The notes beneath the pieces were generated by a model that saw nothing but the letters and a program-made list of their open reading frames with translations, was not told the origin of the DNA and made no database searches. A program made the position numbers and the translations under genes. A DNA stretch of 64,000 bases, from the sequence record NZ_CP123987.1; one strand, given 5' to 3'. Positions 1 through 29,120 of the stretch are shown in pieces. The DNA comes from a plasmid. Position 1 is the stretch's first letter. Each line of letters opens with the position of its first letter.

Positions 1-378
1 ACGTTGATTGCTTGATAACCTTGAAATTCCGTATAAATTGCAGTTGCTGTTACCCTAATTCCTTCAGCCTTTAGTTTTTTCATGACTTCTAACCCATCTA
101 AAGTAGTTGGAACTTTGATGTATACATCCTTACCTACTTCATCTACAATTTTATGAGCTTCATCTATCATTCCAGATACTGAAGGTGCCACAACTTGTAC
201 GTGGAGTTCTCTTTCATCTTCAATGATTTCCTTTATTTTTTTAAGATGTGCGAATAAATCATCGCCTACTCCATCTTTTTTTAGAATCGTTGGATTAGAA
301 GTTACTCCTTTAACATTTAATTTATCACAGTAATATTTAATCTTTTTCAAATCAACTGTATCTAATAAAAATTCCATA
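1..378 (-). CDS. Fructose-6-phosphate aldolase / transaldolase family protein (Fsa/TalC-like), 3' end cut by window edge
   Basis: Reverse-strand translation from ATG at 376-378 gives MEFLLDTVDLKKIKYYCDKLNVKGVTSNPTILKK..., matching the N-terminus and the TSNPS(T)I motif of Fsa/Tal proteins. Gene extends past position 1. Confidence 0.7.
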
Positions 379-21152: not shown

Positions 21153-21350
21153 TTAACGCTTTCTTTCATAACGTTTTGTTGTCACCAATGATTGATAGAC
21201 ATATCTTATACCTAGGTAAGTAAATAATATATCAATAATTGCAAATAAAAAATATCCTTTATCAAGAAAAATACTTCCTACTGCTATTGATAACATTACT
21301 AAACCGATATAAAAAGTATAATTTTTATAAAAATTTTTATTTATTTTCAT
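21153..21350 (-). CDS. Small membrane protein (hypothetical)
   Basis: 65 aa, 2 TM segments. Confidence 0.35.
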   Translation of the reverse strand: MKINKNFYKNYTFYIGLVMLSIAVGSIFLDKGYFLFAIIDILFTYLGIRYVYQSLVTTKRYERKR

Positions 21351-22168: not shown

Positions 22169-22963
22169 TTAAACTGTTTTCAAATTATACCTTTCAATCA
22201 AACTTTTCATTTTAGCCTTACTTCTCCTAGGAAAAGTCTCCTTATATCCATCTTTAAAAGAAATACTCCTTGTTGACAGGTTAATTTCAACAATATTACT
22301 TGGATTAGCTAAACAAGATTGTGATATTTTTTCTAGAAAATCATTTTCTACCTCTAACTTCTTAATATCGCCTGTAAACTCACCCATACCATTAACTGTA
22401 ACTATTTTCAATCTATGTGACTTAGGAGTGGTAATAATATATAGAATATCATTGATATTTTCGTTAATAATTCTTCTGCCCATTTTATAGCTAAATGTCA
22501 TTTTCTTTATGGCATGAGATTCCCTAATTCTCCTTGCAGCTAATGATAAAGTCTCATTTAGTCGTTTTTGAATCACTTCATCATTATCATTTTTAGTAAT
22601 AAAATCCAATGCTCCAGTACGACGTCGATAAGTCATTGCTGCTAGATTTTCATAAGCTGTAATAAAAATTATCTGTGCATTTGGATCTTTTTGTCTAATA
22701 AATTCAGCTAAATCTATCCCATCTCTATCTGCTTTATCTTTACTAAGTTCAATATCTAAAAAATAAACTCCACTATCTACTTTGTTATCTTCCAAATAAT
22801 CGGCTACTTCAATATAACTATTAGCTTCCAAAGTTATTTTAAATTTTTTACCTTTACTGTCAGCAGAATCTTCTAAAGACCAAATAGCATATTTAACTAG
22901 ATCATGTATCCTTCTAACTTGATCCTTCTCATCGTCACAAATAATAATTCCATATTCTTCCAA
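22169..22963 (-). CDS. LytTR-family response regulator (AgrA/PlnC-like)
   Basis: N-terminal receiver domain (IIICDDE... D.. K) and C-terminal LytTR DNA-binding domain (YIITTPKSHRLKIVTVNGMGEFTGDIKKLE). Confidence 0.85.
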   Translation of the reverse strand: MEEYGIIICDDEKDQVRRIHDLVKYAIWSLEDSADSKGKKFKITLEANSYIEVADYLEDNKVDSGVYFLDIELSKDKADRDGIDLAEFIRQKDPNAQIIFITAYENLAAMTYRRRTGALDFITKNDNDEVIQKRLNETLSLAARRIRESHAIKKMTFSYKMGRRIINENINDILYIITTPKSHRLKIVTVNGMGEFTGDIKKLEVENDFLEKISQSCLANPSNIVEINLSTRSISFKDGYKETFPRRSKAKMKSLIERYNLKTV

Positions 22964-22976
22964 ATTAAACTACCCC

Positions 22977-24264
22977 TTAAATGCTCATAACCATAAGGAA
23001 AGTAAACCAACCATCTTTAATTTGATAATTAATAAAAATATCATTATAAGATTGACTTAATTCTTCTATATTAGCTAATCCTAATCCGTCATGATTCTTC
23101 TTAGTTGTAAAACCTGATTTTTTTATATCTTGAATTGTTAGATCGGTATCTCGATAACGATTTCTAATCTCAATTTCAAGTTCACCATTTTCTTGATAAA
23201 TCATAGTATCTATCTTAGCTTCATCACCAAACTCAAGACTTTCTTCAATTGCATTATCGTACACAATTCCTAATATTCTAACAATGTCAAACGAGTTATA
23301 CTTATTCGACAAGTTTTCTATCACAATTCGACATTCAAAAGAATATTGAATATTGTTTTGAAAGATTCTATTCAACTTACTGATAAATAGACTCTTTAAT
23401 AATTCATCTTTAACATTGTCAACATCATTAAACTGCCATAATACTTTATCTTCTAAAGTCTTACTTGAATATTCAGCTAGTTTATCTATTAACTCTTTAT
23501 CATGACTTTTTTTACACTGAGTTTCAAGCTTAATAGCATATTTTGATAATCGTGCTTAAATTTACGTAAACCTCGCTGGCTACTTTCTAACTGTTGTGTA
23601 TAAATTTTTAGATCATTAATTTGTTGTAAACTTAATTTATCCTGCCGTATTTTCTTATTAATGGAATATACAAATAATGAAAAGAACAATTGGCTAACAA
23701 CAACTACCGTAGCTATAATATACGATACTGCATCTATATTAAATACATATGTTGTTAGATAGTAAATAACCATTGAACTAATCCATATGTATAAAATTAA
23801 ATAAAAATACAATAATCCATACTCATCATCTAGTTTCTCTATTATAGTCGTCTTTGTTAAAATTATATATTCAAAAATGTTTAATGACACATCTAATATT
23901 ATCACACTGACCATTGTGTAATAATTTGTAAATAATGTAAAAAATAATGCTGAAGCACCGAATGTTATATAGGAAAATAAATCTAGCATTAACAACCTTC
24001 CACATAATCTGTAATCCAAAGTTAGTTGTCTGTATACAATATAAAAAATAAAAATTTCAATAAATGGTGCAAAAAAACCAATAATATCTCCAACACCATT
24101 AATTAAAAGAATTACAGGAAAAGTAAGAAGTATAAATAATAAATTATACTTCTTACTTTTCCTAGTAGGGGTCAAAAGATAAAAAAACTATATCTACAAA
24201 AAGTATTTATAAATAAAATTAGTGTAGCTACTATATAACCAGATGTTGAATTTAAATTAACCAT
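22977..24264 (-). pseudogene. AgrC-like (HPK10) histidine kinase, frame-disrupted
   Basis: ATG at 24262-24264 overlaps the IP stop (TAATG). The frame is lost at an A7/T7 tract at 24181-24187. The TM sensor plus H-box (RKFKHDYQNML) ORF runs 23489..24175. The HATPase part (GLGLANIEE) 22977..23375 is in the same frame but separated by TAA, TAG, TAG. The intervening 45 nt read sensibly (SHDKELIDKLAEYSSK) only in another frame. Confidence 0.7.
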
Positions 24265-24380
24265 TATTTACAAACACCAAAAAATGTGAATATACATTGC
24301 CATCTTTTAAAGCCACCCTTTTTGGTTGCTCCCCCAGCTATTTTCTGTAACTTCTTTTCTGTTAACACTTCAAACTTCAT
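24264..24380 (-). CDS. Induction-peptide (autoinducer) precursor with double-glycine leader
   Basis: Unannotated 38-aa ORF MKFEVLTEKKLQKIAGG/ATKKGGFKRWQCIFTFFGVCK. RBS GGAGAG 7 nt upstream. Immediately upstream of and overlapping the HK start. Classic IP-HK-RR arrangement. Confidence 0.75.
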   Translation of the reverse strand: MKFEVLTEKKLQKIAGGATKKGGFKRWQCIFTFFGVCK

Positions 24381-24811: not shown

Positions 24812-25018
24812 CTAACGGCAACTTGTAAAGCCACCAGAAATTCCACCCGCTACGGCTGACCAGGGTCCACCGATAGCTCCAATTAAAGCTCCACCTACGA
24901 TGCCAGCTCCACAGTGAACCCAGCGATTTCCACTACCACCATAACCATTTTTACCACCATTTACTGATGCTAAGTTATCTTCAGTCATAATTGTGAATCT
25001 TTTATCTAGATTTTTCAT
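24812..25018 (-). CDS. Class IIb bacteriocin peptide (beta-like), GG-leader, Gly-rich
   Basis: MKNLDKRFTIMTEDNLASVNGG leader, then KNGYGGSGNRWVHCGAGIVGGALIGAIGGPWSAVAGGISGGFTSCR with multiple GxxxG motifs. Resembles LafX/GatX-type peptides. RBS AGGAG 9 nt upstream. Confidence 0.8.
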   Translation of the reverse strand: MKNLDKRFTIMTEDNLASVNGGKNGYGGSGNRWVHCGAGIVGGALIGAIGGPWSAVAGGISGGFTSCR

Positions 25019-25035
25019 TTTAAATTACTCCTATA

Positions 25036-25227
25036 TTATAAACAAGTAAGTGCTCCGCCTACCATTCCTAAGTTTGCTCCACCTACAATACCAGCTGGTC
25101 CAAGTGGAACTCCTGCAGCTGCTCCAGCAAATAGACCACCTAAAAAGTTACCTACACAGTTAGGACCACGTTTCCCACCATCAACCTTTGCTAACTCACA
25201 TTCTGTCAATACTGTAAATTCCTTCAT
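25036..25227 (-). CDS. Class IIb bacteriocin peptide (alpha-like), GG-leader, Gly-rich
   Basis: MKEFTVLTECELAKVDGG leader, then KRGPNCVGNFLGGLFAGAAAGVPLGPAGIVGGANLGMVGGALTCL (GxxxG-rich, 2 Cys). RBS AAAGGA upstream. Start chosen at MKEF; an alternative ATG lies 3 nt upstream. Confidence 0.8.
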   Translation of the reverse strand: MKEFTVLTECELAKVDGGKRGPNCVGNFLGGLFAGAAAGVPLGPAGIVGGANLGMVGGALTCL

Positions 25228-25235
25228 CATGATAA

Positions 25236-25493
25236 TCATCCTTTCATATGTTTATTTACTTTCATCGCAGTATCTAATAAGTAAAGTAGTGTACTACCAC
25301 CTACTAGACAAAAAATAGTGACTATTATCATTTTAGGCGTTTGAATATAATCTAAATAAGACATTTCCTCATTACCAAACAGCCATATTCCTAGTGGAAT
25401 CAATAGTGCCCAAATAACTGGAGCAATAACATATCTCTTCTTTCCTCTAATGAATCCACCATCCAACCAAGTCTCCCATAGTTTTTTTAGCAT
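25236..25493 (-). CDS. Two-TM membrane protein translationally coupled to peptide alpha (immunity / accessory candidate)
   Basis: Stop overlaps the peptide start (ATGA). Start chosen at MLKKLWETW because of the RBS AAAGGGTG. Confidence 0.45.
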   Translation of the reverse strand: MLKKLWETWLDGGFIRGKKRYVIAPVIWALLIPLGIWLFGNEEMSYLDYIQTPKMIIVTIFCLVGGSTLLYLLDTAMKVNKHMKG

Positions 25494-25622: not shown

Positions 25623-25796
25623 TTAACTACAAATATTTTGATTTGAGTGTCTTAATCTTTTAAAAAATTTAGTATTAGCAATTGTACAGCCTATATCGTA
25701 ACCAAACTGTCCGCTATCTATATAATCATAAGAATTTCTTCCACCAATTATATGTGCCAATTCTTTCTTATCAACTTGTACAAAATTATTATTCAT
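25623..25796 (-). CDS. Unannotated GG-leader peptide (bacteriocin-like or pheromone-like), 57 aa
   Basis: MNNNFVQVDKKELAHIIGG/RNSYDYIDSGQFGYDIGCTIANTKFFKRLRHSNQNICS. RBS GAGGTG 9 nt upstream. TATAAT box about 30 nt upstream. Below the ORF-track length cutoff. Confidence 0.65.
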   Translation of the reverse strand: MNNNFVQVDKKELAHIIGGRNSYDYIDSGQFGYDIGCTIANTKFFKRLRHSNQNICS

Positions 25797-26028
25797 AACT
25801 TCAACACCTCATAATTTTAAAAATTTATTATAGCTATAATTTACACTTATAATTATTCACTTCATCTGCTCTTTTTGACTATTTCTTCTAATTTTGCTAA
25901 ATTTTATTCTTATTCTCTTTTTTCAACCAGATAGGCACCGCTTACTACCAAATTGGAAAAATCCCCTCAATTCATCACTTTCTATGTGATAATAAAAATA
26001 CTTTTATAATGAATTGAGGTAAAAAATT

Positions 26029-26292
26029 ATGAATAGTTTTTCTAATAATATTAATTTCAGCAAAATTTCTGTTTCACTAATTACTTTATTCCTGTTGATC
26101 TGGACATTAGTTGATGGAAATCTAATTCATCTTGGTATATTGGCTTTTTCTTCTTTGGTTACAACCATGCTACATTTTCACTATTTTGAATCTACTGATG
26201 ACAAACATCCATTAAATAGAATTGATTTTGGATTACAATTACTATTTATCTTTATTTCTATTATTAAGTTTTTCTTGATTTCAGGAAGATAA
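26029..26292 (+). CDS. Small membrane protein (hypothetical)
   Basis: 87 aa, 3 TM segments, RBS GAGGTAAA. Followed by the terminator at 26299-26340. Confidence 0.45.
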   Translation: MNSFSNNINFSKISVSLITLFLLIWTLVDGNLIHLGILAFSSLVTTMLHFHYFESTDDKHPLNRIDFGLQLLFIFISIIKFFLISGR

Positions 26293-26298
26293 CAATAA

Positions 26299-26340
26299 GC
26301 CTATCAGGTATCAAATTACACCTGATAGGCTTATTTATTA
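26299..26340. terminator. Bidirectional terminator
   Basis: AAGCCTATCAGGT...ACCTGATAGGCTT 13-bp perfect stem. Confidence 0.8.
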
Positions 26341-26650
26341 ACAATTTTGTACTTCTTTTTAAATTTTCTTTCTGGTATAATTTTACGATTAGTGAAATCC
26401 AAGTAATCGCCTATATACCCACTTGCATAAGTTGCCCACCAACCTGAAGGCTCATTAAATAAAGTCTTAAAATTCGTCCAAGCACTAATTTTAACAGGTG
26501 CCTTAACTCCATTCATAATAAATAACAATTTATCACCTGATCACTTTAGATAGTTAGCTTTAAATGCTTCTTTTATCCATTCAGGTTGTTCTGCTGTTTT
26601 ACTTATCTGCCATATTTGTACTTCTTTACCTTTATAGATTGCTTTCATAG
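26331..26650 (-). pseudogene. Paralog of the 28767..29120 protein, inactivated by an in-frame TGA
   Basis: MKAIYKGKEVQIWQISKTAEQPEWIKEAFKANYLK*SGDKLLFIMNGVKAPVKISAW...KKYKIVNK is collinear with MKAIYRGRKVDVWQVSRDNVQPDWVKDAFEHNGLRWLHGSGNKVRIYWPAV...KKYRIVSED. TGA replaces the Trp codon. Confidence 0.6.
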
Positions 26651-26869
26651 AAATCACCTTCTACATATAATTAAAGAGCTCTATTAATTACATTTTCATT
26701 ATACTATTTTCATAATACATCCAATGCTAAATTTCTTAACTAGCACTATTTCTTACTTATTTGGTAAATAGTCCAAATAAGTAGTTATTGCTACCATTCC
26801 AGCAGTTTATCACACTATGTAGACATTATTTGCAATAATTACATATATACGATTAGGGGGATTGAAAAA

Positions 26870-27841
26870 ATGAGATACATTAAATTTACTTTACTAATAT
26901 ATTCTTTTTTACTAACTTGGGGAATCACCACGAATAGTATATCAGCGGATGAAGTTACACCTACTACAACATCTGAAACAACAGTTACGCCTCAAAGTCA
27001 AAGTACACCTGTTGATTCTAATGATGAGGATGCTGCAATTGAAGAAAAATTTTACTCTCATGATGTTACAATCGATAAATATAATCAAAATGTGGCAAAC
27101 TTCAATAAAGTTAATACTGATACTGTTAAAACCATGGTTACTGAAAATAGCAACAATCTAGACCAAGTTCTTTACATTGGACGTCCTACTTGTTATTTTT
27201 GTCGGCAAGCTTCTCCACATCTACGTGATTTTAACCAACTAATAAATAATCAGCTTTACTACTATGATATTGATGCTGAACCTAATGCTCATGATTTTGC
27301 ATTTAAAGAAATTGGAATTTCTGGAACCCCAACAACTATGCGTTTAAAGAATGGTAAAGTTGTCAGTGCTTGGATTGGTGGCGAAAAAACAGGACAAGAA
27401 TTTTATGACTTTTTATTTTCTGCAGATGCTAACAAGTTAGCAGATTCCTATATCATAAAGAAAACTGTAAGCACGGATACTTCAAATCCTGTTATTACAA
27501 ATAATCAAAATGTTGAACCAACTGTTAAGCCTATATCAACAAATATAAATCAGCTTAAAGAGGAAAAAACTACTCCTGAATTGGTTAATACTACTTCACA
27601 ATCATCTAAACCTGTTAAAAAAATTCATAATCAAACTACTAATAAGAAAAACAAAAATTCTGTTCTACCACAATTAGGGGTTGTCCCTCTTTATCATCAT
27701 CCATTATTTAAACTTCCTATTCCTCGAATTATCCCTAAGCAATTAGAACGTACTATAATGTTAATTACTTTTCTAGTTCTGTATTTGGGGTTCTTAATAT
27801 ATTTATGGTTGAGCTGGAAAGACATAAATAAAAGGAAGTAG
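26870..27841 (+). CDS. Secreted thioredoxin-like (CxxC) protein with C-terminal TM anchor
   Basis: Signal peptide, CYFC motif in a thioredoxin-fold-like region (YIGRPTCYFCRQASPHL), Thr/Asn-rich linker, and a C-terminal hydrophobic helix plus KDINKRK tail. Confidence 0.6.
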   Translation: MRYIKFTLLIYSFLLTWGITTNSISADEVTPTTTSETTVTPQSQSTPVDSNDEDAAIEEKFYSHDVTIDKYNQNVANFNKVNTDTVKTMVTENSNNLDQVLYIGRPTCYFCRQASPHLRDFNQLINNQLYYYDIDAEPNAHDFAFKEIGISGTPTTMRLKNGKVVSAWIGGEKTGQEFYDFLFSADANKLADSYIIKKTVSTDTSNPVITNNQNVEPTVKPISTNINQLKEEKTTPELVNTTSQSSKPVKKIHNQTTNKKNKNSVLPQLGVVPLYHHPLFKLPIPRIIPKQLERTIMLITFLVLYLGFLIYLWLSWKDINKRK

Positions 27842-28005
27842 ATAAAGACGTAAAATATGCGATATAGCAATAGGACCAATTAGAAAATTTATGCAAATAA
27901 TCGATTTTTGTAGATTCAAAACTACATTTTTGCATAAATTAGTAAATTGGTCCTATCTTTATATTCAACTTTTTTTATTATGTTACTTTTATTATGCGGT
28001 AACTG

Positions 28006-28766: not shown

Positions 28767-29120
28767 TCAATCTTCAGACACTATCCGATATTTCTTGGCG
28801 AACTTTTCGGCTGTAACGACCTTAGAATTGGTAAAATCGATAACATCTCCCTCAAAGCCAATGTCATACATCGACACGCTGCCACCAGCTATACCAACAA
28901 AAGAAGCTGAAATATCATTCAAAATAGTTCGTACTATTCCCTTTTTTGCCCTAGTAACTGCTGGCCAATAAATTCTGACTTTATTACCACTGCCATGTAG
29001 CCATCGCAACCCATTATGCTCAAAAGCATCTTTAACCCAATCAGGTTGGACATTATCTCTACTCACTTGCCAAACATCTACTTTTCTACCTCTATAGATT
29101 GCTTTCATTTGCTTTATCAC
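28767..29120 (-). CDS. Hypothetical protein (intact member of a 2-copy paralog family)
   Basis: 117 aa. Paralog of the 26331..26650 pseudogene. Confidence 0.5.
   Translation of the reverse strand: MIKQMKAIYRGRKVDVWQVSRDNVQPDWVKDAFEHNGLRWLHGSGNKVRIYWPAVTRAKKGIVRTILNDISASFVGIAGGSVSMYDIGFEGDVIDFTNSKVVTAEKFAKKYRIVSED

Follow-up and report, generated by a model that had tools for sequence, protein, structure and literature searches.

A probable PedC-like thiol-disulfide oxidoreductase beside the ABP-118 class IIb bacteriocin locus on an L. salivarius megaplasmid

Gallocin A is a class IIb bacteriocin whose peptides need their disulfides for activity, and reduction abolishes this activity (PMC10100652). 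Deletion of blpT, which encodes a surface thioredoxin, abolishes killing by gallocin A, and in S. gallolyticus UCN34 the gene (gallo_rs10370) is co-regulated with the gallocin locus (PMC10100652). The same study placed ABP-118 together with gallocin A in one structural subgroup, the disulfides of ABP-118 being AlphaFold predictions only in that work (PMC10100652). In S. thermophilus LMD-9, the thiol-disulfide oxidase BlpG(St) is described as needed for the activity of thermophilin 9 (Fontaine & Hols 2008, as cited in PMC11564875 and PMC4919988), and PMC4919988 presents thermophilin 9 as a class IIb bacteriocin on which the enzyme acts. PedC raises the potency of pediocin and its correct disulfide formation (PMC4919988; PMC5465099). 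In addition, L. salivarius DPC6502 has in its bactofencin A operon the gene for DLSL_0053, an accessory protein with a Trx domain that is dispensable for disulfide formation in E. coli (PMC5465099). Among the probiotic-trait bacteriocins of L. salivarius, ABP-118 (salivaricin P) is the best studied. Accounts of the ABP-118 locus in the literature searched list structural, immunity, regulatory and export genes; the gene studied here, called trx below, is not listed.

The stretch of DNA analysed (NZ_CP123987.1, 64,000 nt; hereafter the window) comes from an L. salivarius megaplasmid and carries the ABP-118 (salivaricin) class IIb locus. The locus is 99.9% identical to that of pLS2102-15_1 and syntenic with that of pMP118 of UCC118, where an ortholog of trx occupies the same position (LSL_RS10580 / WP_003703465.1, annotated 'thioredoxin family protein', 87% amino-acid identity). 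We consider it likely that trx encodes the PedC-like (BlpT/BlpG-type) extracytoplasmic thiol-disulfide oxidoreductase of this locus; judging from sequence and gene context, the enzyme would most likely close the single disulfide in the neighbouring ABP-118 peptides. The protein is an ordinary example of a kind of accessory protein that other bacteriocin loci, two-peptide ones included, are already known to encode. No experiments on it or on the disulfides of ABP-118 were found in the literature searched; papers on abp118/salivaricin and thioredoxin dealt just with cytoplasmic thioredoxin systems or other bacteriocins, and no mention of the gene was found under the old UCC118 locus tags LSL_1920-1925. 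The features of trx and its surroundings are collected in Table 1.

Table 1. Features of the trx gene and the ABP-118 locus, with positions in the window.
Feature	Position	Strand	Remarks
abpR, intact LytTR response regulator, presumed activator of the trx promoter	22169..22963	-	97% identical to UCC118 AbpR, full length
abpK histidine kinase gene, frameshift-split into 228- and 132-aa ORFs	22977..24175	-	tblastn
abpIP induction-peptide precursor, possible substrate	24264..24380	-	PF19154/DUF5836 E 5e-30; mature Cys12 and Cys20 of 21
abp118beta precursor, presumed substrate	24812..25018	-	mature Cys14 and Cys45 of 46 aa
abp118alpha precursor, presumed substrate	25036..25239	-	mature Cys6 and Cys44 of 45 aa; 1 Cys in leader
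third double-glycine peptide (salivaricin B-like), presumed substrate	25623..25796	-	mature Cys18 and Cys37 of 38
putative AbpR (LytTR) binding site	26772..26802	+	two 10-bp direct repeats, 21-bp period
left repeat TCCAAATAAG	26772-26781	+	
right repeat ACCATTCCAG	26793-26802	+	
extended -10 TGCAATAAT	26831..26839	+	28 nt 3' of right repeat
ribosome-binding site AGGGGGA	26855..26861	+	8 nt 5' of ATG; read from sequence
trx, 323-aa PedC-like/BlpT-like thiol-disulfide oxidoreductase gene	26870..27841	+	starts ATG
predicted signal peptide, aa 1-26	26870..26947	+	cleavage between ISA and DE; sequence features, AF2 helix 2-20, conserved context
thioredoxin-fold domain, aa about 60-195	27047..27454	+	AF2 block pLDDT 88-98
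active-site motif C108-Y-F-C111 (GRPTC-Y-F-CRQ)	27191..27202	+	between strand 98-104 and helix 109-124
T153-P154-T155, putative counterpart of thioredoxin cis-proline loop	27326..27334	+	directly before strand 155-160
disordered Lys/Thr/Asn/Pro-rich stalk, aa 196-289	27455..27736	+	pLDDT <50 for residues 200-289
LPIPR, degenerate LPXTG sortase-motif remnant	27713..27727	+	aligns with LPSTG, LPQTG, LPKTG of distant homologs
C-terminal transmembrane helix (aa about 295-316) and basic tail KDINKRK	27752..27838	+	hydropathy; AF2 helix 290-322
long imperfect inverted repeat where trx and the HAD-phosphatase gene converge	27862..27964	.	two 36-nt arms, 81% complementary

The preliminary description, made from the sequence, had read trx as encoding an exported, membrane-tethered CYFC thioredoxin-like protein, and a predicted signal peptide, Trx domain, stalk and C-terminal transmembrane helix were indeed found. 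The N-terminus runs MRYIK, FTLLIYSFLLTWGI and TTNSISA up to the predicted cleavage site, with DE following it, and its n, h and c regions are arranged as in a Sec signal peptide; the cleavage context (A, then D or S, then E) is kept in distant homologs. The thioredoxin fold anticipated in the same description appeared in the AlphaFold2 (AF2) model as a confident block (pLDDT 88-98) whose best structural match is 1zma. Over most of residues 60-195 the pLDDT exceeds 90, with strands at 98-104, 129-133, 155-160 and 163-169 and helices at 109-124, 140-148 and 175-182, and the segments 17-59 and 200-289 are disordered. The model has the central beta-sheet and flanking helices of the thioredoxin-fold superfamily, and its CxxC motif stands, as in that superfamily, right before a helix (109-124). 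C108 and C111 are the sole cysteines of the 323-aa protein, and nearly all homologs have CYYC or CYFC as active site. P154 is invariant across the homolog alignment, the placement of its loop relative to the following strand being taken from the AF2 model; the window strain bears P152S in this otherwise conserved GIPGTPT loop. Compared with the UCC118 ortholog, dN/dS is 0.10 in the Trx domain and 0.27 in the stalk, and by this measure the Trx domain is under purifying selection. Of the 94 stalk residues, 12 each are Lys and Thr and 11 each are Asn and Pro, and the earlier description of the stalk as Thr/Asn-rich was roughly right, all four residues being abundant. Kyte-Doolittle analysis found a single transmembrane-grade segment, at about residues 295-316. 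Homologs from other species bear LPNTG, LPSTG, LPQTG or LPKTN at the C-terminus, and LPXTG_anchor had no match in the window protein but was present in one homolog (P0064). A sortase-anchored wall protein was rejected, as the motif reads LPIPR instead of LPXTG, although the hydrophobic stretch and the basic tail do exist.

Foldseek returned 363 PDB matches to the Trx model at E<=0.001, of which the best 50 are thioredoxin-fold proteins or thioredoxin fusions. The top match, 1zma (TM 0.80, rmsd 2.2, E 6e-8), bears the name 'bacteriocin transport accessory protein', and thioredoxins come next. The isolated Trx domain scored 25.9 bits against PF00085, with a cut-off of 23.5. The protein matched TIGR01295 (PedC_BrcD) with an E-value of 1.4e-15, compared to 1e-5 for generic thioredoxin; its 57.5 bits stay below the equivalog cut-off of 120, as do the 62-78 bits of relatives from other genera. 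BrcD belongs to two-peptide brochocin-C. By these profile scores, the trx protein belongs to a related clade outside the PedC/BrcD equivalog family. PF20207 ('PedC-like') has precomputed matches for a 94%-identical protein (P0001) and for other CxxC-bearing homologs. Over 122 aa of the Trx domain, the trx protein is 52% identical (E 1e-43) to a S. gallolyticus 'bacteriocin biosynthesis protein' (P0197), and it is 45% identical to a S. infantarius protein of a gallocin-like locus, which bears LPNTG. Many lactobacilli, streptococci and enterococci have homologs of it among the thioredoxins of their bacteriocin loci. A DsbA/BdbD-like enzyme was also considered and rejected, the AF2 model being without the inserted helical domain.

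The mature forms of Abp118alpha, Abp118beta, the third double-glycine peptide and the induction peptide hold exactly two cysteines each, as had been noticed before. The name of the salivaricin B-like peptide is taken from PMC10095417, and abpIP is annotated as AbpIP family in the loci L001 and L002. At 0.73% Cys, the frequency in the long ORFs of the window, the joint probability of exactly two cysteines in every one of the four peptides, given their lengths, is about 4e-7. The preliminary description had suggested a PedC-analogous oxidoreductase for these two-Cys peptides. The fold, the specific though sub-threshold TIGR01295 match, the homology to the S. gallolyticus protein that fits BlpT and the conserved locus linkage all argue for such a function, and the likeness to PedC is more than analogy because the trx protein is homologous to PedC-like proteins. 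The further claim, that it is unusual for a class IIb system to be paired with such a protein, is not supported, as BlpT with gallocin A is already published (PMC10100652) and BlpG(St) with class IIb thermophilin 9 is cited in PMC4919988.

We propose that the protein would be exported by Sec and that cleavage of the signal peptide would leave the Trx domain outside the membrane. The C-terminal helix would hold it in the membrane, since the ancestral LPXTG has decayed to LPIPR, and transfer to the wall is improbable. As each peptide leaves the AbpT/AbpD exporter, the oxidised CxxC motif would then hand its disulfide on to the cysteine pair of that peptide. Abp118alpha, Abp118beta, the SalB-like peptide and perhaps the AbpIP pheromone are the candidate substrates, and the disulfide would staple a predicted helical hairpin in the peptide. 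AbpR would probably switch on trx together with the remaining locus.

Loci with related genes in other taxa support the association with bacteriocins. Among 21 such loci, 20 have an AbpT-like C39 ABC exporter, Cys-paired GG peptides, or both, the exception being a weak Muribaculaceae match (L023); their GG peptides contain exactly two cysteines, or four in one pediocin-like peptide. An AbpT homolog lies within 10 kb of the trx-type gene in 17 loci. The Muribaculaceae match is one of the four loci without it nearby, and the other three are short or at contig ends and have two-Cys GG peptides. Homologs from other genera, at 38-65% identity, likewise lie within bacteriocin loci; the trx-type gene of several lactobacilli stands directly 3' of the exporter genes, and a mouse-gut Lactobacillus MAG has Abp118alpha/beta-like peptides beside a short form of the enzyme. 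An uncharacterised protein of about 110 aa accompanies the trx-type gene in L. salivarius, streptococci and Enterococcus and could be a further part of the module. A word-indexed protein search with the neighbouring 117-aa protein of the window returned solely L. salivarius sequences.

The region upstream of trx resembles the AbpR-type promoters of the locus. A position weight matrix (PWM) for the AbpR site was trained solely on the repeats of the abpIP and 87-aa-ORF promoters. Scored on the repeat pair alone, the trx site reached 11.5 and ranked 28 in the window, its right repeat being weak; the corresponding repeat of the UCC118 ortholog, ACCATTTCAG, is better. Upon addition of a gap of 28-29 nt and an extended -10, a spacing criterion set after the trx site had been inspected, four sites were found in the 64 kb, all within the locus and trx included, against 0.055 expected. 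The geometry of the trx promoter agrees with that of the abpIP, 87-aa-ORF and UCC118 abpT promoters, and the UCC118 abpT promoter matches the model independently. The abp118 operon's own promoter was missed by the model, and searches upstream of trx with 9-mer direct repeats (19-23 bp spacing) and with the single motif WCCRRATWWG were ambiguous. No -35 is recognisable near the extended -10 of trx and a generic sigma-70 scan finds no -35/-10 pair, which is expected because the promoter would be activator-dependent. A 12-bp hairpin at 26753-26784 has the left repeat as its 3' arm and could be a terminator or an operator instead of an AbpR box. An operon of trx with the upstream 87-aa ORF was rejected, as a strong bidirectional terminator (26294-26335) and an opposite-strand pseudogene lie between them. 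The inverted repeat downstream of trx is probably a bidirectional terminator.

Within L. salivarius, trx is present on 20 of the 22 plasmids with complete abp118, a co-occurrence confounded by the physical linkage of 1.4 kb and by nine near-identical badger isolates. The megaplasmids of B4311 and SNK-6 have complete abp118alpha/beta genes and a trx gene reduced to residues 258-323. The exporter is present in B4311, and the supernatant of this strain is reported to inhibit Listeria (PMC11617682; PMC11007469). Since B4311 is anti-listerial though without most of the trx gene, the enzyme appears not to be strictly required, unless a chromosomal enzyme substitutes for it or another bacteriocin explains the activity. 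Abp118alpha and Abp118beta made cell-free are active without the trx enzyme (PMC10095417). The blpT deletion phenotype in S. gallolyticus, on the other side, speaks indirectly for a requirement (PMC10100652). All four plasmids that keep just the C-terminal half of the gene lack abp118, and many isolates have truncated (about 190 aa) or N-terminally replaced, CxxC-less (218-222 aa) forms. In the window itself, no homolog of AbpT or AbpD is present in the 64 kb; in UCC118 the trx ortholog lies about 5.4 kb from abpT, inside the locus. The tblastn segments of abpK (23989-23492 and 23534-22980) are in different frames. With abpT/abpD absent and abpK frameshifted, the enzyme is probably without an exported substrate from this locus, which is probably non-producing here, with trx intact but idle. 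The preliminary description had noticed neither the absence of the exporter nor the break in abpK.

The state of the locus bears on whether trx is, in this strain, a functionless relic heading for decay like the broken abpK and the missing exporter. The loss of abpT/abpD and the frameshift in abpK would fit this, as would the truncated or CxxC-less forms in many L. salivarius isolates and the P152S exchange in the GIPGTPT loop, but the ORF, the ribosome-binding site and the promoter-like site are all intact and the Trx domain has a dN/dS of only 0.10 against UCC118. We regard the relic as possible though on the whole doubtful. It concerns the present use of the protein and not its identity, and is compatible with an oxidoreductase of the ABP-118 locus. 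A different question is whether trx encodes an extracytoplasmic thiol-disulfide oxidoreductase that serves other surface and secreted proteins of L. salivarius as a general housekeeping enzyme and was placed beside the locus by megaplasmid accident. The gene is monocistronic, on the strand opposite to the bacteriocin operons and with small ORFs between, strains can drop it yet keep abp118, and the plasmid segment is a mosaic that includes metabolic genes. However, homologs of other genera (38-65% identity) sit in bacteriocin loci, several directly after exporter genes, the nearest characterised relative is bacteriocin-specific, abp118 is absent from all four plasmids with only the C-terminal half of trx, and an AbpR-type promoter-like site lies upstream of the gene, which together make a housekeeping role very improbable.

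Two readings keep the enzyme within the locus and change its target or its direction. The main target might be the pheromone, the enzyme cyclising the two-Cys AbpIP and thereby controlling the quorum-sensing induction of the locus. Mature AbpIP has Cys12 and Cys20, two cysteines also occur in an AbpIP variant on an L. salivarius-like contig (L007) and in a pheromone-like peptide of E. columbae (L022), and an AbpR-type promoter would yield a feedback loop. In Lactobacillus and Streptococcus loci with homologous enzymes, however, the likely pheromones contain no cysteine and the bacteriocin peptides contain two, therefore the conserved substrate class is the bacteriocins, and AbpIP as main target is quite unlikely. 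It is compatible with the preferred reading, in which the enzyme matures the bacteriocin peptides. A combined form, in which the enzyme, itself AbpR-dependent, would oxidise AbpIP to a disulfide-cyclised pheromone besides maturing the toxins, such that induction would be gated by extracellular redox via positive feedback, we consider unlikely. The enzyme might also work in the reducing or isomerising direction, for instance reducing incoming or re-entering bacteriocin at the producer surface for self-protection, or just proof-reading wrong disulfides as proposed for PedC. Some relatives are named 'Immunity modification protein' in databases, the NCBIfam label of the PedC/BrcD family is 'disulfide isomerase', and gallocin A is inactivated by reduction (PMC10100652), so that in principle the cell could be protected by a reductase at its surface. 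Against an isomerase, two cysteines per peptide leave nothing to isomerise; against a reductase, loss of blpT cut the killing by the producer and not its survival (PMC10100652), and no electron donor of the CcdA/DsbD type is found beside trx in the annotated neighbourhood. We give this direction very little credence, and the oxidising enzyme of the ABP-118 locus remains our preferred reading.

Should efficient disulfide formation depend on the enzyme, above all in the anaerobic gut, trx ought to accompany the locus into heterologous hosts and to be taken into account in the typing of producer and non-producer strains. In practice the gain would be modest, as pediocin, thermophilin 9 and gallocin A have already established the principle and natural strains without trx appear still active.

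Among the known systems, the DsbA/BdbD oxidases resemble the trx protein as extracytoplasmic CxxC proteins of the Trx fold that oxidise exported proteins, whereas the Trx domain of the trx protein is plain, with about 135 aa and without the inserted helical domain, and no gene for a DsbB/BdbC-like partner is annotated in its neighbourhood. DLSL_0053, likened here by description, comes from the same species and is paired with a bacteriocin with one intramolecular disulfide; unlike trx, its gene shares an operon with its transporter. The PedC/BrcD family consists, like the trx protein, of secreted CxxC proteins of the Trx fold from class II bacteriocin loci. However, PedC serves a four-Cys class IIa peptide in which the pairing must be chosen, while only one disulfide is possible in each peptide beside trx, and PedC-type proteins are short (model of 152 positions), without the long stalk and C-terminal anchor. 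The structure 1zma, the best match to the trx protein, comes from S. pneumoniae. BlpG(St) is a thioredoxin-like CxxC protein whose locus, of the blp type and under quorum-sensing control, encodes multiple double-glycine peptides that contain cysteines; its relation to trx is drawn through the shared PedC-like family, and the two are likened by description. The closest counterpart is BlpT, with P0197 equated with it from species, annotation and architecture rather than a locus tag. Deletion revealed what BlpT does, whereas the function of the trx protein is read from sequence and context and its partner exporter is missing in the window; BlpT is co-regulated with its locus and trx has an AbpR-type promoter-like site. 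The linkers and stalks of the two proteins are unrelated in sequence, and P0197 ends in LPKLG, a hydrophobic stretch and a basic tail where the trx protein has LPIPR in otherwise the same arrangement. Both proteins begin with a signal peptide and an N-terminal low-complexity linker, continue with a Trx domain that contains YxGRPTCY[YF]CRQ and then a stalk, and close with a C-terminal sorting-like signal; this same order of domains together with the homology makes the trx protein BlpT-type. Similar to blpT, trx adjoins the genes of a two-peptide bacteriocin in which each peptide has two cysteines near its ends.

The trx gene is monocistronic: upstream it is bounded by a strong terminator and a pseudogene on the opposite strand, downstream by a long inverted repeat. 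In its product C108 and C111 are the sole cysteines, in the context GRPTC-Y-F-CRQ. The N-terminus, MRYIK / FTLLIYSFLLTWGI / TTNSISA|DE, is laid out like a Sec signal peptide, and homologs in other genera show the same small-residue-A|acidic context at the cleavage site. The AlphaFold2 model, with a 19-sequence alignment as input, revealed a plain thioredoxin fold in the folded domain, with the CxxC motif between strand 98-104 and helix 109-124 and the T-P154-T loop, invariant in the alignment, ahead of strand 155-160. Two residues ahead of this proline, codon 152 (window 27323-27325) encodes Ser in the conserved loop (GISGTPT), whereas all other aligned CxxC-bearing homologs have Pro (GIPGTPT). 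Lys, Thr, Asn and Pro abound in the stalk, and hydropathy gave one transmembrane-grade stretch at residues ~295-316, followed by KDINKRK. The CYFC thioredoxin motif, signal peptide, stalk and C-terminal membrane anchor named in the preliminary description are thus borne out by sequence, AlphaFold2 and hydropathy, and the thioredoxin fold for which it had proposed structure prediction was indeed predicted.

Features of the trx gene and its product, and positions of homologs of the flanking 117-aa protein in related loci
Feature	Position	Strand	Remarks
trx ORF	26870..27841	+	323 aa
Ribosome-binding site AGGGGGA	26855-26861		strong; ahead of trx ORF
N-terminal helix	residues 2-20		AlphaFold2
Confidently folded domain	residues ~60-195		AlphaFold2, block pLDDT 88-98
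Disordered segments	residues 17-59 and 200-289		AlphaFold2
C-terminal helix	residues 290-322		AlphaFold2
117-aa homolog	L017 8402-8704		S. infantarius
117-aa homolog	L016 8403-8705		S. caballi
117-aa homolog	L022 11450-11782		E. columbae
117-aa homolog	L015 13169-13486		S. pacificus

The top solved-structure match to the Trx domain was 1zma, an S. pneumoniae protein named 'bacteriocin transport accessory protein' (E 6e-8, TM 0.80, rmsd 2.2), and ordinary thioredoxins ranked after it. The best NCBIfam model was TIGR01295, 'PedC/BrcD family bacteriocin maturation disulfide isomerase' (E 1.4e-15), with generic thioredoxin reaching only 1e-5. However, the TIGR01295 score of 57.5 bits is well below the equivalog cut-off of 120 bits, which relatives from other genera likewise miss. 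In precomputed Pfam tables, the CxxC-bearing homologs carry PF20207 'PedC-like'. This combination places the window protein, by sequence, in a sister clade of PedC/BrcD within the PedC-like family. The C-termini differ across the family, being absent (162-193-aa proteins), LPXTG signals (LPSTG, LPQTG, LPNTG, LPKTN) or a basic tail. The L. salivarius end, LPIPR plus IIPKQLERT, a hydrophobic helix and KDINKRK, aligns with the LPXTG sorting signals of homologs, and a profile search with the LPXTG-anchor model gave no match in the window protein; we interpret this end as a sortase signal that has decayed and serves today as a plain membrane anchor.

Scanning one genome per species yielded 18 loci, one a weak match, and exact look-ups of distant homologs added 3 contigs, for a total of 21 loci. 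The 18 come from lactobacilli (Lactobacillus spp., L. johnsonii, L. delbrueckii, Limosilactobacillus reuteri), streptococci and enterococci (Streptococcus infantarius, S. caballi, S. pacificus, S. henryi, Enterococcus columbae), a Lachnospiraceae bacterium, a Bacillota MAG and a Muribaculaceae MAG, with Trx-domain identities of 33-97%. An AbpT-like C39-peptidase ABC exporter, Cys-paired double-glycine peptides, or both lie within 10 kb of the gene in 20 of the 21 loci, the sole exception being the weak Muribaculaceae match. The mature double-glycine peptides in related loci have exactly two Cys (four in one pediocin-like peptide). Several lactobacilli share the gene order kinase, LytTR regulator, exporter, LcnD-like protein, thioredoxin and bacteriocin peptides, and in one Lactobacillus MAG from mouse gut the enzyme, in a short and unanchored form, lies beside Abp118alpha/beta-like peptides.

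A 307-aa S. thermophilus protein (P0073) shares 88% identity with the S. infantarius enzyme (L017 9662-10705) and is probably an inactive copy, because an internal deletion takes out the first strand through to the CYYC motif. The trx gene is flanked on one side by a Cys-free 117-aa protein (28767..29120, -) and on the other by its frameshifted paralog (38 + 65 aa; 26331..26657, -). The 117-aa protein matched no Pfam or NCBIfam family and carries the conserved motifs MKAIY.G..V.VW.IS....QP.W and GY.GD..DFTN. Its homologs (35-38% identity) lie 1-2.5 kb from the thioredoxin homolog in four streptococcal/enterococcal loci, and such proteins are rare: 1.84 billion proteins include 47 cluster representatives of the family.

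The region is 99.9% identical to L. salivarius plasmid pLS2102-15_1 and syntenic with megaplasmid pMP118 of UCC118, where the trx ortholog LSL_RS10580 is annotated merely as 'thioredoxin family protein'. On the strand opposite trx, the locus encodes Abp118alpha and Abp118beta (class IIb bacteriocin ABP-118), a salivaricin B-like peptide and the induction peptide AbpIP, with the AbpR and AbpK genes downstream. As the preliminary description had claimed, the mature part of each of these four double-glycine peptides has exactly two Cys, for which the joint chance is ~4e-7 at the Cys frequency of the window's long ORFs (0.73%). The Abp118alpha leader (MIIMMKEFTVLTECELAKVDGG; 25174-25239) has a third Cys, lost on processing; the abp118alpha start is uncertain owing to two in-frame upstream Met codons, and the RefSeq product has 64 aa.

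No AbpT or AbpD homolog was found anywhere in the 64-kb window, and a frameshift splits abpK (22977-24175) into a 228-aa and a 132-aa ORF, with abpR intact. Segment 19900-22170, in place of UCC118 abpT/abpD, holds a 285-aa ORF without a Pfam match alongside small membrane ORFs of 81, 65 and 50 aa. Judged from gene content, the ABP-118 locus is in a non-producer configuration, as reported for strain P1CEA3, where Abp118 went undetected (PMC10095417), and for the exporter-less 'Type B' non-producers (PMC11617682). Since AbpT and AbpD are missing and abpK is split, the intact trx gene is probably idle in the window strain as regards this locus.

A position matrix was built from two pairs of 10-bp direct repeats with a 21-bp period, the clearest ones, which lie upstream of abpIP and of an 87-aa membrane ORF. 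The next-best matrix site in the UCC118 locus was the abpT promoter, which was absent from the training set and whose geometry equals the model (repeat pair, 28 nt, TGN plus -10 hexamer). Upstream of trx we found TCCAAATAAG-N11-ACCATTCCAG-N28-TGCAATAAT, the right repeat being ACCATTTCAG in UCC118. A composite criterion of repeats, spacing and -10, its spacing rule set only after the trx site had been inspected, gave four sites in the window, all at 21.4-26.9 kb and including the trx site (0.055 expected from simulated sequence). By repeats alone the trx site, with its weak right repeat in the window, ranks 28th; its left repeat doubles as one hairpin arm, and the abp118 operon's own promoter does not fit the repeat model. 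The site suggests that trx transcription is AbpR-dependent.

Of the AbpR-type repeat pairs in the locus, the best one, ACCAGATAGG-N11-ACCAAATTGG-N28-TGTGATAAT (25926-25993, +), faces the unannotated hydrophobic 87-aa ORF (26029..26292, +), which had no family match and is possibly an immunity-like membrane protein. This site is conserved in UCC118, where the PLSDB gene table, itself incomplete, lists no gene. A further promoter-like site, GCCAGATATG-N11-ACCTAATTCG-N28-TGATAAATT (21488-21421, -), lies within the segment replacing abpT/abpD, ahead of a 65-aa membrane ORF (21153..21350, -), so the AbpR regulon seems to reach into the replacement cassette.

Comparison of the window with UCC118 gave dN/dS values of 0.10 for the Trx domain, 0.27 for the stalk and 0.48 for the C-terminal anchor. 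Among PLSDB plasmids, 21 carry the full trx gene, 22 complete abp118alpha/beta/abpIM and 20 both, although physical linkage limits the proof value of this co-occurrence and 9 of the 20 are near-identical badger isolates. Four plasmids (NZ_CP027645.1, NZ_CP097640.1, NZ_CP101686.1, NZ_CP062072.1) retain only the C-terminal half, without the CxxC, and all four lack abp118; two others retain only the last 66 codons, both with complete abp118. Decayed versions occur in many L. salivarius isolates (P0023/P0025 and P0028-P0059), either ~190 aa long and ending just past the Trx domain, or as 218-222-aa ORFs with the N-terminal half, including signal peptide and CxxC, swapped for unrelated sequence.

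One of the two 66-codon plasmids belongs to strain B4311, which has the exporter genes and whose supernatant is reported to inhibit Listeria (PMC11617682; PMC11007469). In addition, cell-free-made Abp118alpha plus beta is active (PMC10095417), and the bactofencin accessory protein is dispensable in E. coli (PMC5465099). These cases argue against a strict need for the trx enzyme. They could be explained by spontaneous oxidation in air, by a substitute enzyme encoded on the chromosome or by a different bacteriocin; even so, the trx enzyme is more likely an efficiency factor than essential. Anaerobic conditions have been suggested as those where BlpT matters most (PMC10100652), and the trx enzyme may also be most important there.

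With the fold, CxxC motif, topology signals, homology and conserved context of the window protein established, we propose a working mechanism. AbpR would activate the trx gene, and the product would be exported by Sec and cleaved after A26. The C-terminal helix would hold it in the membrane with the basic tail inside, and the flexible stalk of ~95 residues would let the domain reach the peptides as they exit the exporter. The CxxC disulfide would then be handed to the peptide's Cys pair, a simple transfer being favoured because each peptide can form at most one disulfide. The two-Cys pheromone AbpIP is a possible extra substrate. No DsbB/BdbC- or CcdA-like gene was annotated near trx. Homology and the comparative context lend good support to an oxidoreductase role for these peptides, as first suggested.

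A search with the S. infantarius protein retrieved P0197 from S. gallolyticus, 337 aa long and annotated 'bacteriocin biosynthesis protein'. It fits what has been published on BlpT (gallo_rs10370), which is a co-regulated surface protein of the gallocin A locus with an extracellular thioredoxin domain (PMC10100652). The window protein is 52% identical to P0197 across the 122-aa Trx domain (E 1e-43) and has the same domain order, P0197 ending in a degenerate LPKLG motif; the co-regulation reported for BlpT (PMC10100652) parallels the AbpR dependence suggested for trx. Deletion of blpT abolished E. faecalis killing as fully as in a bacteriocin-null mutant, both gallocin A peptides need their disulfide for activity, and ABP-118, brochocin C and thermophilin 13 are grouped with gallocin A in a Cys-paired, helical-hairpin class IIb subgroup (PMC10100652). 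Earlier studies of PedC and BlpG(St) led to the same view, that oxidoreductases of this kind act on several bacteriocin classes, with thermophilin 9 as a class IIb example (PMC4919988). The class IIb pairing, initially called unusual, is therefore not so, given BlpT with gallocin A and BlpG(St) with thermophilin 9, and the claimed novelty is not supported, this type of accessory enzyme being already known. L. salivarius itself offers another case, the accessory oxidoreductase of the bactofencin operon (PMC5465099). On sequence grounds, the window protein is a further candidate of this known bacteriocin accessory type, with a putative decayed sortase signal and a probable AbpR promoter as its special features.
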